Shown here: positions 20,860-27,548 of the stretch, in pieces
Position numbering within the stretch: the stretch's first letter is position 1
Layout of the letters: the number at the start of each line of letters is the position of its first letter
Source: an uncultured Actinomycetes bacterium
Lineage (GTDB): Bacteria > Actinomycetota > Thermoleophilia > Gaiellales > Gaiellaceae
DNA: 64,000 nucleotides
Assembly: GCA_963814525.1 (NCBI GenBank)
Contig: CAWFDH010000005.1
Span: 88,786 to 152,785 of the forward strand
Reading direction: 5' to 3'
Translations under genes and position numbers: made by a program
Notes under the pieces: generated by a model
What the model saw: only the letters and a program-made list of their open reading frames with translations
What the model was told of the DNA's origin: nothing
The model's database searches: none

Positions 20860-23026
20860 GTGAGCCGCTTCGTATCTGCGCTGGTCGTTCGGCTGCGCTG
20901 GCCGATCGTGCTCGCCTGGGTCGTCGCCGCCTGCGCGGTGGTCGTGTACCTGCCGAGCCTTCAGGAGGCCGGGGAGGAGACTTCGCTCCTCGGGCTCGTT
21001 CCCGCCGACGCGGCCGCGCTCGCCGCCGAGCGGCGGTCGGCTGAGCTCTTCGACGCGCCGGTCACGACGCAGACGCAGGTCGTCCAGCGCGATCCGGGTG
21101 GGCTCTCCGACGATGCGCTCGAGCGGGCCGGCAACCGGGCCCAGGCTGCGGAGGACGGCGAGTTCGGCTCGATCAAGGTCGTCCTTCCGCTCCCGAACGC
21201 GAAGGACGTCGTCCCGGCCTCGCGCGAGGACGGCACGACGATCGTGAACTACGTCTTCTTCGATCCGGCGGTCACCGGACTCTTCGAGCAGGAGCGCGAG
21301 ACCGCGAGCTTCGCCGCGACCGAGTTCGGCGAGGGCGACGCGCTCGTCGGGATCACCGGCGCCGCGGCCGCCCAGGTGGCCGAATGGCGCGCGATCGAGG
21401 ACGGCCTCCCATGGGTGACCGTCGCGACGATCCTGCTGATCGCCGTCGTCCTCGCGATCCACTTCCGCTCGCCGGTCACGCCGGCCGTGATCCTGGTCGG
21501 CGCCTCGGTCGCCTACGTCGTCTCGCTGCGCACGGTTGCGTGGATGGGCGACTGGATCGGGGTCACCATCCCGCGCGACGCCGAGCCGATCCTGGTGGTG
21601 CTCCTGCTCGGGGTCGTGACCGACTACGGGATCTTCTTCCTGCACGGGATGCGCGAGCAGCTGGACGCCGGCGCCGAGCGCGTCGACGCTGCCCAGGAGG
21701 CCACCGCTCAGTACCTGCCGATCGTGGTGACCGCCGGGCTGATCGTCGCGGGCGGAACCGCTGCGCTCATGGCCGGGCGGCTCGCGTTCTTCCGCGACTT
21801 CGGGCCGGGGATGGCGCTGACCGTGCTCGTGTCGCTCGTCGTCGCGATCACGCTCGTGCCGGCGCTCATGGCGATCCTCGGCCAGCGCGCGTTCTGGCCG
21901 CGCGGCCGCTCGGAGGAGAAGCCGGACGACCGGCCGAGCCGCGTCGCCTACTTCGTGACGGCGCGCCCGGTGGCGCTCGGCATCGCCGCCGTCGCCGTGG
22001 TCGGGCTCGTGCTCGCGGGACGCGGACTGCAGGAGACGCAGCTCGGCGTCACGCAGATCGCCGGCCTGCCGAGCGACTCGCAGCCGCGCCGCGCCCAGGA
22101 CGCGGCCGCCAAGGGCTTCGCTCCGGGGATCCTCTCGCCGACCGTCGTGCTCGTCGAGAACGCCGGGGATGCCGACGCGCTCGGCCGCTTCGGGCGTGCG
22201 CTGGCGGAGGAGCCGGGGGTCGCCGCTGCGATCGGGCCGTCCTCGGAGACCGACGAGCGGCTGCGCGGACTCCTCGTCACGGACGACGGTGACGCGGCGC
22301 GCTTCCTCGTGATCCTCGCCGAGGAGCCGCAGGGAGGGCCGGCGATCGAAGCCGTGGAGGCGCTCCGCGACCGGCTGCCAGACGCTGCTCGCGGACGCAG
22401 GGCTCGGCGGCTCGACTGCAAGCCTTGCGGGGGACACCGCACTCGCCCAGGAGACCGTGGACACGATCACGGACGACCTGATCCGCATCGGGATCGTCGC
22501 GTTCCTCGTCAACTTCGTCTTCCTCGCGATCTTCCTGCGGGCGATCGTCGCGCCGCTCTACCTGGTGCTCGCGTCGACGCTCGGTCTCGCGGCCACGATC
22601 GGCCTGACGACGCTCGTCTTCCAGGGCTTCCTCGGACACGGCGAGCTGACCTACCACGTGCCGTTCGCCGTGGCCGTGCTGCTGCTCTCGCTCGGATCGG
22701 ACTACAACGTGTTCCTCGTCGGGAGGATCTGGCAGGCGGCCGAGGACCAGCCGCTGCGCGAAGCGATCGCGACCGCGGCGCCGCGCGCCTCGCGGGCGAT
22801 CGGCGTGGCCGGCCTCGCACTGGCGCTCTCGTTCGCCACGCTCGCGTTCATCGATCTGCGGCAGTTCCGGGAGTTCGCGTTCGCGATGTGCGTCGGCGTC
22901 CTGATCGACGCCTTCGTCATCCGCGCGCTGCTCGTGCCCGCGCTCGTCTCCCTCTTCGGAGACCTGAGCTGGTGGCCGCGCTCGCGCAAGGCGGCCGGTG
23001 TTCGAGCCGCGCCCGAGCCGTCCTAG
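20860..23026 (+). CDS. MMPL/RND-superfamily membrane transporter (one frameshift near 22385)
   Basis: Two-module MMPL topology: LLLGVVTDYGIFFLHGMRE in the first half (ORF 20860..23070) and LLSLGSDYNVFLVGRIW plus the C-terminal TM bundle in ORF 22457..23026. Confidence 0.85.
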
Positions 23027-23066
23027 CGCTCGGACTTCCTAGCTGCCCGCCGAGGCCGGTTCAGGG

Positions 23067-24985
23067 TTGAACCGAACCGTCCGTCGGCGTACCTTCCTGG
23101 AGATGGAAGGACATCGCAGGCCAGCGACCGGATTGACGGCGGTAGTGCTCACCGCAGTGGCGCTGCTCGCGTTTGCGGGCGTGGCGCACGCCCAGCGAGC
23201 GCCGTCGACGGGAGACGGCGTCCCGACGGGCCAGATGGGCGCCCAGATGTTCAACTACGGCGGCTACCTCAACAACGGGGGGAGCATCGGCGCCGCCAAC
23301 CCCATCACGGGCGTCTCCGTCGACTGTCTGACCTCCACGACGACGCCCTGCCGGCGGGAACGGCTCGAGCGGCTCTTCGCCTACCTCCAGTTCAAGGGGG
23401 TCACGAACATCGAGCTGTTCGGCCATTCCGGCTTCCCCGCGACCACCGACATCCCGGGCCTGCAGGCGTACCGGTCCTTGCTGGACGAGTACGGTCTGCA
23501 CGCCGGCGGCTGGCACGGCGACATGAGCGAGGGCAACTGGGCCGCTCGCATCCTCGCGGGCAAGATCCTGGGCGTCGATTACCTCGGCTCGGGTGGCACG
23601 CCCGCCCCCGGCATCGCGACCTACGCGAACACGCTCGCGACCGCCGAGACGCTCAACCGGCTCGGCAAGCGGTCGGTCGAGGCAGGAGTGGGTCCGGCGT
23701 ACTTCCACAACCACCAGACTGGAGTTCACGACCCAGTACATGCACGACGGCGAGCTGACCACCGTCTTCGACATCCTCCTGGAGGAAACCGATCCCCGGT
23801 ACGTCGTGGCCGAGCTCGACGTGCTCTGGGCCGCCGACGCGTTGGGGGACATCACCGGCGCGCAGGTCGCCGCTCTCATCAACAAGTGGTACACGCCCGC
23901 GGCGGGTCAGACCCCGGCCTCGTCGCGCGTACAGCTGCTGCACATGAAAGACGGCATCAACATCGATGACGTCGGTAACGCCAGCCCGCGTGCCATCGGC
24001 ACGGGCGAGCTGGACTTCCTGCCCATCCTGGCCGCCGCCAAGGGCAAGGTTCGCTACTACCACCAGGAGCAGGACGGCGGAACGACCACCGACGCCGAGA
24101 CGAGCTTCAACAACCTGAAGGGCATCAACACGGCGGTCGTCCCGACGCTACTCGCGCTACCGCGGACGTTCCAGTCGGTGCGGCCGGGGGAGGAATCGCA
24201 GATCGTGGCGGTGCTCGTCGAAAACACCGGCGACGTTCCTCTGACCATCACCGACATCGCGGTCGAACAGCATGCGCTCGACGCGCCTTCTGCCGCGGAC
24301 TTCCACATCGTCGGCGAGAACTGCACGGCTGCCGGCGGCGGTGGACCCTTGTGGACGCGCGGCATCTGCGTGGTGAACGTCGTCTTCGAACCTCTGCGTT
24401 CGACCGCGACGTCGGTCGCCCGCCTGCAGTTCACGTCGAACTCGGATGACGCGGCGAACAGCGTGCTGCTTGCGGCCACGAGCCTGAACAACCTGCCGGT
24501 CGTCACGAAGCCGGCCAATCAGGCGGCGTCACGCGGCGTCGGCAAGTTCTTCTCGCTGGGCTCGTTCACCGACCTCGGCGCCGACGGTCCCTGGAACGTC
24601 GAGGTCGACTGGGGCGACGGCAGCCCGCACACGCTCTCCCTCGCCTCCGCGCCGGGAGCCCTCGGCCTCGCGTCACACGTCTACGCGGCTTCGGGAACCT
24701 ACGCCGTCGTCGTCAAGGTGACGGACGAGGACCTGGACTTCGGGCAGGCGTCGTTCCAGATCAAGGTCACGCCCCAGTGTGTCGTTCCCAAGCTCCGGAA
24801 CAAGACCCTCAGCGCCGCGAAGAGCGCCCTCCGCGCCGCGAACTGCCAGCTCGGGAAGGTGACGACGGCCTTTTCGAGCACGATCAAGAAGGGCCGCGTC
24901 ATCAAGCAGGCGAAGGCGCCGGGCGCCCGCCTCGCCGAACGGGACGAAGATCGGCCTGACGATCAGCAAGGGCCGTCGGCCCTAG
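23067..24985 (+). CDS. secreted multidomain protein: xylose-isomerase-like TIM barrel + beta-sandwich + PKD + PASTA (frameshifts near 23705 and 24930)
   Basis: Tat-like signal (RRRTFLE...AFAGVAHA-Q). TIM-barrel motifs FHNHQ-EF, ELDVLW, LLHMKD, GELDF, YHQEQD. A Thr/Val-rich sandwich region (LVENTGDVPLTITDI). PKD motif VDWGDGS...YAASGTYAVVVKVTD. C-terminal PASTA (CVVPKLRNKTLSAAKSALRAANCQLGKV...GRVIKQ...GTKIGLTISKGRRP). Confidence 0.7.
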
Positions 24986-25044
24986 GCGGCCGCGGGCGAA
25001 ACCGAAGCAACAGGCTCACTCGCGACGATTAGTAGGCTCGCCTG

Positions 25045-25398
25045 GTGAGCTCTTGGTTCCCAGCCTCTCTTCGCCGCCGGCGGCTCCCGAGGCCCGAGCC
25101 GGTCGAGACGGAGATTGAGCGCCGCGTCGATGCAGTGCTCGACTCGCTCGCCGGCGAGCGGAACGCCGAGCCGCTCTGGATCGAGGTTCGCCGACTCGTC
25201 GGGAACGAGCTGACCGTGCTCTGGCGCGACGGGAAGCTCCAGGGGAAGAAGCTCGAGGAGGCGTTCTTCGTGCGCTGCGACCGGACGACGATGACTCAGG
25301 CCGATCTCGATGCCGGGCGGCTCGTCGTGCTGGTCGGGTTCGCGCCGGTCAAGCCCGCCGAGTTCGTGATCTTGCGCTTCCAGCGTCCGCGCGGCTAG
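25045..25398 (+). CDS. stand-alone contractile-tail sheath C-terminal-domain-like protein (gene remnant or mini-protein)
   Basis: Intact 117-aa ORF containing ...EPLWIEVRRLVGNELTVLWRDGKLQGKKLEEAFFVRCDRTTMTQADLDAGRLVVLVGFAPVKPAEFVILRF. From memory this closely matches the conserved C-terminus of phage and eCIS tail sheath proteins (AFFV.CD..TMTQ.D.D.GRL....G.AP.KPAEFVI.RI). Confidence 0.6.
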   Translation: MSSWFPASLRRRRLPRPEPVETEIERRVDAVLDSLAGERNAEPLWIEVRRLVGNELTVLWRDGKLQGKKLEEAFFVRCDRTTMTQADLDAGRLVVLVGFAPVKPAEFVILRFQRPRG

Positions 25399-27548
25399 CG
25401 CGCCCGCGCGGGCCCCGGCGCCTCGTGCGGGCCGCCCTCGACCTCCATGTGCGGCAGCCAGTCGAGCCAGCGCGGGAGGTACCAGTTCCACTTGCCGAGG
25501 ATGGTCATCGCCGCCGGCACGAGGACGGAGCGGACGATCGTCGCGTCGATGAGGAGCGCGATCGCGATCCCGAAGCCCATCTGCTGGAACATGACGAGCT
25601 CGCCCATCGCGAAGCCGAGGAAGACCGCGACGATGATCAGCGCGGCGCCGGTGATGATCCGCGCGGTCGAGCGTGATCCCGAACTCGATCGCGTCGTTCG
25701 TGTCGCCGGTCTGCGAGTAGCGCTCGCGGATGCGGCTGAGCAGGAACACCTGGTAGTCCATCGAGAGCCCGAACAGGACCGCGAAGAGGAAGAGCGGCAC
25801 CCAGGCCTCGACGATGTCCACCTGCTGGAAGCCGAGAAGGCCGGTGCCGATGCCGTGCTGGAAGACGAGCACGAGCAGCCCGTAGGTCGCGCCGACCGAG
25901 AGCAGGTTCAGCAGGATCGCCGTGCCCGCGATGACGATCGAGCGGAACGCGACCGTCAGCAGCACGAAGCTGAGGCCGAGCACGAACACGAGCACGATCG
26001 GCAGCCAGTGGTTCATCACGTCGAAGTAGTCGATGTTCTCGGCGGTCGTGCCGCCGACGAGCACCGTGGCGTCGGTTCCCTCGAACGCGGCGGGGACGAT
26101 ACTCGCTCGCGCAGCCGCTTCGACCGCGTCGACGGCCTGGTCCGAGAGCGGATCGGCCGAGACCGGGACGCTGATCACCGCGACGCCGTCGCCCTCGTTC
26201 GACCGTCGGGTCGCCGAATGCGTCGTCGGCGGCGAGCTCGTCCTCGAGCCGCTCGATGCCCTGCGCCGTCGGTTCGCCCTGGACGACGATGCGAGCGGGA
26301 TCCGATCCCGCGCCCGGGAACGACTTCTCGAGCGCGAGGAAGCCCTGCTTGGAGACGAGCGAGTCGGGGAGCGTGCTGACGCCGGCGGCGCCGATGTTCA
26401 TGCTGAACACGGGCAGCGCGGCCGCGACGAGCAGTCCGGCGGCGACCGCGAAGGAGAGCACCGGCCGTCGCATGACGCGGCGGACGATCGTGCCCCAGAA
26501 GCGGCTCTCCTGCACCTCGCCCTCGTCGAGCTCACGGGCGATGAACGGGATGCGCAGGCGGTTCACGCGGTCGCCGAGCAGGCTCAGCACGGCCGGGAGG
26601 AGCGTGATCGCGGCGACGACCGAGACGATGCCGACGAGGATCGCGCCGGTGGCGAGCGAGCGCATGATCGTGTTCTGGACGAGCAGCAGGCCGCACATCG
26701 CGAGCACGAACGCGCTGCCGCTGAAGAGCACCGCGCGGCTGGCCGTGGCGCCGGTGGCGGCGATCGCCTCGGTCTTCTCGCGGCCGCGCGCTCCGCTCCT
26801 CGCGGAAGCGGGAGACGACGAAGAGCGCGTAGTCGATCCCGAGCGCGAGGCCCATCCCCGTGAGCATGTTCACGACGAAGAACGAGAGCGCCCACTGCTG
26901 GCCGACGATCGCGGTCAGGCCGAGCGCGACGATGATCGAGACGATCGCGAGCAGGAGCGGAATCGTCGCGGCGACGGCGGCCCCGAAGACGAGCAGCAGG
27001 ATGATCAGCGCCGCCGGGAGCCCGTAGCGCAGCTCGCCCTTCTGGAGGTCGCTCTCCGAGAGCTTCTCGAAGTCGCGGTCGATCGTGTTCGAGCCGGTGA
27101 CGCGCGACCTCGAAGCCGTCTTGGCCGTCGAACTCGTCGACGAAGGCGTAGCAGATCCGTCGAGCGGCTTCTTCCTCGTCGCCGTTGAGCTCGATGGGCA
27201 GCATGACCGCGTGCTGATCTGCTGAGACCGTCGCATCTCCGACGCCGATCGCCTCGAGCGAACTCAGCGCTGCGTAAATCGGCATCGACTCATCCCAGTG
27301 CCTCGGACGTCAACTCCTCGTTCCTGACCACTAGGAGCTCGGTCGCCTGGGCCTGGTGCGGCAGCGACTCGCCGGCGAGTCGTTCAGCCCGCAGCGACTC
27401 GGGGTTGTTCGTGACCGTGGCCTCGCTCGTCAGGCCGTCTCCGAGGAACATGCCCGACGACCACGAACGCGACGACGATCGCGGCGATCCAGGCTCCGAT
27501 CGTCCGCCACGGATGCGCCGCGGCTGCGCGGGCGAGGCGCTCGGTCAT
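25395..27548 (-). pseudogene. MMPL/RND-superfamily membrane transporter, at least 5 frame changes
   Basis: Homology runs through six frame segments:
1. MTERLARAAAAHPWRTIGAWIAAIVV, from ATG 27548.
2. ORF 26584..27285.
3. ORF 26532..27236 (GLALGIDYALFVVSRFREE).
4. ORF 25637..26731.
5. ORF 24982..26178 (GLSMDYQVFLLSRIRE).
6. ORF 25395..25607. Confidence 0.75.

Follow-up and report, generated by a model that had tools for sequence, protein, structure and literature searches.

Why should a soil actinobacterium that has no sheath of its own carry, among ordinary chromosomal genes, a gene for the far end of a sheath protein? The question is raised by a 64,000-nucleotide (nt) stretch of DNA, called the window here, from an uncultured Actinomycetes bacterium of the family Gaiellaceae, in which an open reading frame (ORF) of 117 codons encodes the C-terminal domain of a contractile-tail sheath. 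This mini gene is a real, separately encoded accessory gene, inherited stand-alone at one chromosomal locus in soil actinobacteria, and it very probably belongs to a functional stand-alone gene family. Its product, the mini protein, consists only of the C-terminal handshake module of an extracellular contractile injection system (eCIS)-type sheath together with a short basic extension. The gene and its two parts are as follows.

25045-25398, forward strand: the mini sheath-C gene, with a GTG start, 117 codons and a TAG stop (from the ORF listing and the sequence).
25045-25101, forward strand: N-terminal extension, residues 1-19, basic, with a conserved Trp near its start (alignments A1 and A4).
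25102-25383, forward strand: 'handshake' module (domain 1) from the sheath C-terminus, residues 20-113, matched in PDB, PHROG and Pfam.

An earlier note had recognised a sheath C-terminal domain in this 117-amino-acid (aa) ORF from the letters alone, and database comparison bears it out. The frame ends in the C-terminal sequence that was quoted, and residues 22-114 match 11 sheaths in the PDB by phmmer, at E values of 4e-19 to 1e-12. The best matches are the Halogeometricum contractile injection system (CIS) sheath 9ezm (E 3.9e-19) and Pvc2 (6j0b; E 2.9e-18), followed by Afp3 and Afp2 (E 1e-16 to 1e-15) and by the Streptomyces, Anabaena and Algoriphagus CIS sheaths (E 1e-14 to 1e-12); every match ends at most about five residues from the sheath C-terminus. 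The 'tail sheath' profile phrog_17610 is matched at E 9e-17 over positions 1016-1106 of 1135. The suggested check against Pfam sheath profiles succeeded in part, since PF17482 is matched, at 24.2 bits, which is below the curated cut-off of 26.9 bits; Pfam alone would thus miss the mini protein. PF17482 is the sole family found in the Pfam scan (E up to 1), with no match to PF04965, and judged by its sequence the mini protein appears not to be a PF04965 member.

The handshake module comprises two helices, a beta-hairpin region, a conserved A-P-x-x-P-A-E-F linker and a terminal strand. In the AlphaFold model, with a predicted local distance difference test (pLDDT) score of 67.7, helices occupy residues 20-34, 42-61 and 85-89 and strands residues 73-77, 92-100 and 106-113. 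Foldseek searches with this model return the sheath C-domains of Afp2/3, Pvc2/3, AlgoCIS and the Streptomyces CIS with a probability of 1.0. Residues 1-19 have no counterpart in solved sheaths and pLDDT is below 50 for residues 5-16, whilst in some relatives the extension may be what remains, in degenerate form, of the sheath strand 'IRVWGAR'. A homo-oligomer prediction for three copies, made with alignment A1, scored 0.53 against 0.41 for a control and is not used as evidence.

Only the last 100 or so residues of a sheath are present, as had been proposed. The frame of the mini ORF is shut by a TAG at 25033-25035, 12 nt 5' of the GTG, so that it is open for at most 120 codons, and the upstream gene stops at 24983-24985; there is therefore no space for further sheath sequence. 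When four full-length sheaths are used as tblastn queries, only their last 90-115 residues are found, at the window locus and at every relative's locus, and the sheath N-terminal part is absent in any frame within 4-10 kb at all of these loci. The short-read assemblies of relatives give the same ORF of ~119 aa, which together with the missing N-terminal part excludes a complete sheath gene at this position. The mini gene's ancestor was a sheath gene, of which the N-terminal 75-90% has been lost, and its present product is no sheath protein: the core domain, the N-terminal arm and linkage to the other genes of such a machine are all lacking.

The claim that no tube, baseplate or other tail genes occur in the 64 kb also held, none being found in the window, nor within 8-10 kb at the relatives' loci, nor within 4-10 kb in the short-form clades. 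Six-frame family searches of the whole host genome (G000; 2.57 Mb in 9 contigs, marker completeness 65%) detected no PF04984 (sheath core), PF04965 (gp25), PF04865 (Baseplate_J) or PF05954 (VgrG) and no second sheath C-domain; tube genes alone came to light. The low completeness figure probably reflects indel-broken genes more than missing DNA, because three genomes of the same genus, each a single contig of 2.4-2.6 Mb, also score only 68-80%. As to INDEPENDENCE from a resident machine, PF04984 was not found in G000, in G004 and G005 (two of the five other genomes of the genus, G001-G005) or in G041-G044, all of which have a C-domain-only gene: seven genomes thus carry such a gene yet no sheath core domain. 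A split sheath with its other half elsewhere was also considered and rejected, there being no PF04984 in G000.

The form seen in the window belongs to a small family. A near-length search yields 21 clusters of 115-124 aa, all M-starting, at 61-74% identity to the window protein and with no precomputed Pfam match, and alignment A1 sets the window protein over its full length beside 24 members. When 1.84 billion representatives were searched exhaustively with a profile, scores of 158-179 bits went to four 50%-identity clusters, with the window protein scoring among them, and generic sheath C-termini come next at 138 bits or less. The actinobacterial gene order is found again at loci L014, L017 and L019 and on a JGI contig, short-read assemblies included. 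On the 5' side it runs glpX, a class I aldolase gene, a tiny Flp-like ORF and sometimes a gene for a secreted protein of ~624 aa or Rrf2 and TauE; then follow the mini gene, sometimes an 83-aa membrane-protein ORF, the MMPL gene, and hemA and hemL. The 83-aa ORF (L017:5615-5866, L019:2852-3103, L020:738-989) overlaps the mini gene stop by 4 nt and encodes an apparent two- to three-helix membrane protein with 69% identity between lineages; it occurs in one sub-lineage only and is missing from the window, in which the mini gene directly adjoins the MMPL stop. The L017 copy of the mini gene has a 1-nt indel near codon 27, and its database protein P0020 (L017:5269-5618) has a wrong-frame N-terminus, the true start at GTG 5269 giving the family's M-C-W-L-R-V N-terminus. 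In public reads no run exceeded 11% of sampled words, and the contigs obtained consisted of short, conserved stretches of sheath and MMPL genes from other organisms.

The start of the gene has an architecture of its own, centred on one element.

25033-25038, forward strand: TAGGCT, a -10-like TAnnnT hexamer, 6 nt before the GTG.

The pattern TA[GC][GC][GC]T-N6-start is present in all eight actinobacterial copies despite their diverged flanks. Leaderless transcripts of actinobacteria usually show this TAnnnT-N6-start geometry, and TAGGCT is a putative -10 box for such a transcript, with a presumed promoter function. Two Gram-negative copies have instead a Shine-Dalgarno site, AAGGAGGAG, 5-6 nt before the GTG. 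The Gram-negative clade encodes proteins of 113-119 aa with a Pro-rich N-terminus, its gene lying between a methyltransferase gene and a PMT/TPR gene, with TonB-receptor genes close by; two contigs show this order, one of them 716 kb long.

The mini gene family is under purifying selection. The ratios of non-synonymous to synonymous changes (dN/dS) given below were calculated by the Nei-Gojobori method, p being the one-sided Fisher probability for an excess of synonymous changes; GC3 is the GC content of third codon positions.

L015-L018 (GC3 0.61), whole gene: dN/dS 0.15, p 1e-8.
G004-G005, C-domain: dN/dS 0.20, p 0.003.
Window-G004, C-domain: dN/dS 0.22, p 6e-4.
L017-L019, C-domain: dN/dS 0.27, p 0.004.
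Window-L019, C-domain: dN/dS 0.34, p 6e-4.
Window-G005, C-domain: dN/dS 0.38, p 0.008.

The conservation and dN/dS comparison that the earlier note called for therefore returns orthologues of 115-124 aa with dN/dS below 1. Certain changes are peculiar to the lone domain. In both mini clades, the actinobacterial and the Gram-negative, the hydrophobic 'QWVVFEPN' of full-length sheaths is replaced by 'DSLAGExN' or 'AFAAGQPN', and 'VGFAP' stands in place of the sheath 'VG[VI]AP'; these substitutions may have adapted the protein to existing without the remainder of domain 1. The strand-exchange elements, meanwhile, are nearly as conserved as in working sheaths.

Where did these genes come from? The nearest full-length relatives are sheaths of ~1,040-1,200 aa, with 62-65% identity over residues 25-113. 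In maximum-likelihood trees built by a quick search from 104 columns of the C-domain, the actinobacterial mini proteins, the window copy included, form one clade apart from the full-length sheaths, with 99 in the Shimodaira-Hasegawa-like approximate likelihood-ratio test (SH-aLRT), and the Gram-negative mini proteins form another (SH-aLRT 98). A weakly supported branch (70) has these two clades together on one side. Another two short classes are placed at other points among the full-length sheaths, each with support 98; one has the N-terminus 'DRRNASEWLHP' and the other 'MKxP..SIRVP', and both lie among ordinary genes. On this phylogeny, stand-alone sheath C-domains appear to have arisen at least three times separately from full-length sheaths. 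In G041-G044, which are species representatives, the C-domain gene sits in a frame of 145-248 aa and no PF04984 is found anywhere; G043 has two copies. Other stand-alone sheath C-domain genes, derived independently, of 125-146 aa, with N-termini that differ and among housekeeping genes, are seen at L032:10001-10441, L033:10001-10411 and L034:2731-3108, and more at the GTDB loci L072, L076, L098 and L101. A profile scan of genome contigs finds almost only full-length sheaths, the conserved block being common, and filtering by ORF leaves four domain-only loci. The ESM Atlas holds many short PF17482 clusters, where fragments are indistinguishable from true stand-alone genes.

Several known systems help to place the mini protein. 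With the sheaths of eCIS and CIS machines (Afp2/3, Pvc2/3, Streptomyces Cis2 and Halogeometricum; PDB 6rao, 6j0b, 8bky/8bl4 and 9ezm) it shares homology over their last 90-95 residues, including the blocks F-V-R/K-C-D-R-T-T-M-T-Q, G-R-L and A-P-x-x-P-A-E-F, at 35-41% identity to solved sheaths as against the 62-65% seen with the long metagenomic ones. Unlike them, it is missing the PF04984 core, the N-terminal donor arm and all outer domains; it has no linked tube or baseplate genes, PF06841 occurring on other contigs only; small or polar residues occupy the former inter-domain hydrophobic patch; and its gene has a promoter-like element and a start codon to itself. T4 gp25, P2 gpW and TssE from type VI secretion systems (T6SS), sheath initiators of PF04965, are like the mini protein in being stand-alone and ~100-130 aa long. 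The three-strand domain of gp25 and TssE resembles the handshake domain and receives the C-terminal strand of the sheath (PMC5924787). The mini protein differs from them in deriving directly from a sheath gene, with no PF04965 sequence match, and in having neither a baseplate context nor a gp6/TssF partner or gp7/TssG neighbour, its neighbours being housekeeping genes. Among fold neighbours, the gp25-like 2ia7 scores Z 6.6 (90 residues, root-mean-square deviation 4.2) and TssE 6gj1_D Z 5.7, middling scores in the range of common arrangements, and T4 gp25 (5iw9; Foldseek E 0.1) is a weak fold neighbour of a model whose pLDDT is 67.7. The split T6SS sheath of TssB/TssC (VipA/VipB) provides a precedent for a domain 1 made from separately encoded polypeptides (PMC5807055), whereas for the mini protein the other part is nowhere in G000. 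The mini protein is best described as a domain-only derivative of an eCIS sheath with the size, and presumably the binding logic, of a gp25/TssE-like handshake module.

What might such a protein do? In an assembled sheath, domain 1 interlocks through a four-strand sheet to which one subunit contributes two strands of its C-terminal region, and in which the donor strands are the C-terminal strand of one neighbour and the N-terminal strand of a second (PMC5807055). Both halves of this arrangement appear to be kept in the mini protein, whose acceptor beta-hairpin is connected through the invariant A-P-x-x-P-A-E-F linker to a donor strand at the C-terminus. Since these strand-exchange elements are retained and conserved, it most likely still binds sheath-type beta-arms and takes part in strand exchange. 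The host being without a sheath of its own, a foreign sheath is the most plausible target, and the likeliest partner would be the sheath subunits of an infecting contractile-tailed phage during assembly. A subunit without the N-terminal arm and the outer domains would be monovalent at one end, and so would terminate rather than extend the mesh, capping or poisoning the growing sheath in a manner that would mirror the docking of gp25 and TssE onto sheath strands. This capping proposal, drawn by analogy, is a tentative one with the odds against it; it is put forward because of the retained conservation, the recurrent origin and a patchy, defence-like distribution. That bacteria have repeatedly excised the handshake domain as a 'poison subunit' that ends the sheath of an invading myophage, or of a rival's cytoplasmic CIS, is a bolder suggestion and a rather unlikely one. 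For the broader statement, that this is a selected stand-alone accessory gene whose product likely binds foreign sheath arms, the chances seem to us about even, and it is the best explanation overall.

A number of observations weigh against this explanation, beginning with the history of the gene in its own genus.

24992-25382, no strand: 391-bp segment holding nearly the whole gene, missing in the two closest species, G003 and G001.

BLAST of window positions 23000-27300 against the five same-genus genomes, with a three-way alignment (A2), shows a clean 391-bp deletion in G001 and G003, where the flanks retain 92-94% nucleotide identity; there is a 3-nt GCG microhomology, beyond which no mobile-element ends or flanking repeats surround the indel. 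G002 holds only a remnant, the last ~55 codons, with a stop and a frameshift (contig 9, 231000-231163). G004 and G005 (flank identity 88%) have the mini gene beside the same MMPL gene, each with a single indel (+1 nt and +2 nt, at different sites) that may stem from long-read error or could be real. Because the gene is present in more distant species and in syntenic metagenomic relatives, loss is more parsimonious than a gain in G000. Within the genus the mini gene is accessory, easily lost and dispensable. It is also a rare form, with one short frame among 192 high-quality genomes of the class, and in the family of the host the matches outside the genus are mostly full-length sheaths. Whole-gene dN/dS is only 0.4-0.7 among genomes with GC3 of ~0.9, in which dS is compressed and the N-terminal extension is variable, and the window-L014 comparison of the C-domain is not significant (p = 0.22). 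The structure model has middling confidence (pLDDT 67.7), and folding alone could explain why the strands are so strongly conserved. Neither a conserved partner gene nor a defence-island context came to light; five proteins representing the mini classes have no match in the anti-phage defence library PADLOC-DB v2 (E up to 0.01), and NCBIfam has no match to the mini proteins.

Among the alternatives, exaptation has the best claim. The two-helix, three-strand module would here serve as a small adaptor or scaffold that binds a host protein or itself, its sheath ancestry being merely history. Hosts without any sheath, stable inheritance at a housekeeping locus and the position of the surface changes at the former domain interface all fit such a role, as does the translationally coupled 83-aa membrane-protein gene that lies 3' in one sub-lineage. 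Against this, no constant neighbour is common to all lineages, the strand-exchange elements are as conserved as in working sheaths, and patchy presence with easy loss within the genus speaks against a core cellular role. Exaptation is thus possible, though doubtful.

In this genome the gene might instead be a decaying relic, what is left at the 3' end of the sheath gene of an injection system since lost, open by chance and under no selection now. Its fate in the genus is what such a relic would predict, with deletion in the two closest species, a broken remnant in G002 and single indels in G004 and G005, and the orphan tube genes described below may be further remains of that system; that 354 nt are intact is in itself weak evidence. 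Yet orthologues keep the length, the start and the -10 box across an amino-acid divergence of 50-74%, synonymous changes exceed non-synonymous ones in pairs that include the window copy (window-G004 and window-L019, p ~6e-4), and the changes specific to the lone domain go beyond mere truncation. The orphan tube, moreover, is itself conserved in six of six species of the genus. We consider a relic unlikely. The earlier note had left the choice between a relic and a domesticated mini-protein, and each half of that choice captures something: at the level of the family the gene is domesticated, as synteny, length, promoter and start architecture and dN/dS below 1 indicate, whilst within the genus it is being lost (deleted in two species, a remnant in one, a single indel in two).

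A third alternative involves the tail genes that the genus does possess. The picture of an orphan domain holds for the whole genome as regards sheath core and baseplate, and needs amending for the tube, two orphan PF06841 tube genes being present on other contigs. One, of the eCIS type and 171 aa long, lies on G000 contig 2 at 25411-25926, forward strand (L115:8411-8926), 3' of hemE; it matches PF06841 at E 1.3e-48 as well as phrog_4542, and has no other recognisable tail gene within ~8 kb. No Afp16-type cap-like partner was detected beside it in PDB, Pfam and PHROG sequence searches. Orthologues occur in all six species of the genus, five of which are without any sheath core domain. The other is an ORF of 336 aa on G000 contig 8 at 267370-268380, forward strand (L116:8370-9380), with PF06841 matched in two stretches (E 3e-16); it adjoins a DUF7059/MTS methyltransferase gene and is also found in G001 and G004. 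Within the genus a genuine CIS cluster occurs in G002 alone, where a full-length sheath gene (919-codon open frame) and a tube gene are adjacent (contig 6, ~126019-127343; L031, L121). Since it is domain 1 of a sheath that lies towards the tube, the mini protein might decorate, nucleate or limit a tube-only polymer of the orphan tail-tube proteins. Such a partnership would draw on the well-matched 171-aa tube gene and the second tube-domain ORF in G000, and on the presence of the former throughout the genus. The two genes do not co-occur, however: G001 and G003 keep the tube without the mini gene, G041-G043 carry other mini classes and no PF06841, and in G000 the genes are unlinked, on separate contigs. 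A role with the tube is accordingly very improbable.

That the gene is an artefact, an indel-broken full sheath gene or a spurious high-GC ORF in an indel-rich assembly of 65% marker completeness (2.57 Mb, 9 contigs), has next to no chance of being right, given that tblastn recovers the last 90-115 residues alone here and at the relatives' loci, that the 59 nt upstream abut a different gene, that short-read assemblies contain the same ORF, and that homology at E 1e-19 rules out a chance ORF. GC by codon position in the window ORF (0.73/0.46/0.89) is that of a typical coding frame of a high-GC genome.

The surroundings of the mini gene comprise the following features.

23067-24985, forward strand: gene for a secreted TIM-barrel/PKD/PASTA protein, upstream, frameshifted in the assembly.
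25395-27548, reverse strand: MMPL transporter gene, convergent, with several frameshifts in the assembly.
25380-25418, no strand: imperfect GC-rich hairpin with 15-nt arms, 80% complementary, and a 9-nt loop, spanning both convergent stops.

Once a terminal frameshift is allowed, the true stop of the PASTA-protein gene is the TAG at 24983-24985, 59 nt before the mini gene. The same ~624-aa secreted-protein gene precedes the mini gene in the JGI contig and L014, and not in L017, L019 or G005. The MMPL gene, found 3' of the mini gene in G004, G005, L014, L017 and the JGI contig, does share a CTAG stop with it, at 25395-25398, as the earlier note had read. The hairpin across these stops may be a candidate bidirectional terminator without a T-tract; consensus scans for T-tract terminators and for sigma-70 gave no match, which is unsurprising in a high-GC actinobacterium. 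Between window positions 20860 and 30016 the assembly contains ~1-2 indels per kb, and both MMPL genes, the PASTA gene, hemA and hemL are each split across frames. At this density, the intactness or breakage of any short ORF carries little weight. The ORF is indeed frameshift-free, and the argument built on that is a weak one, as 354 nt would survive by chance in ~50-70% of cases.

Literature searches for stand-alone, orphan or truncated sheath C-domains returned no relevant paper, and a free-standing, selected handshake module of recurrent origin in hosts without a sheath is undescribed in the searchable literature. Should the mini protein bind sheath arms, nature would have supplied a ready inhibitor or probe of sheath assembly, and perhaps a new form of phage defence; the poison-subunit proposal, if true, would represent a new class of single-gene immunity through structural mimicry of a virion part. 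Should it not bind them, it would be a tidy example of a domain of virion origin put to cellular use. Both it and the conserved orphan tube genes of the genus add to the evidence for pieces of injection machines living independently in bacterial chromosomes.

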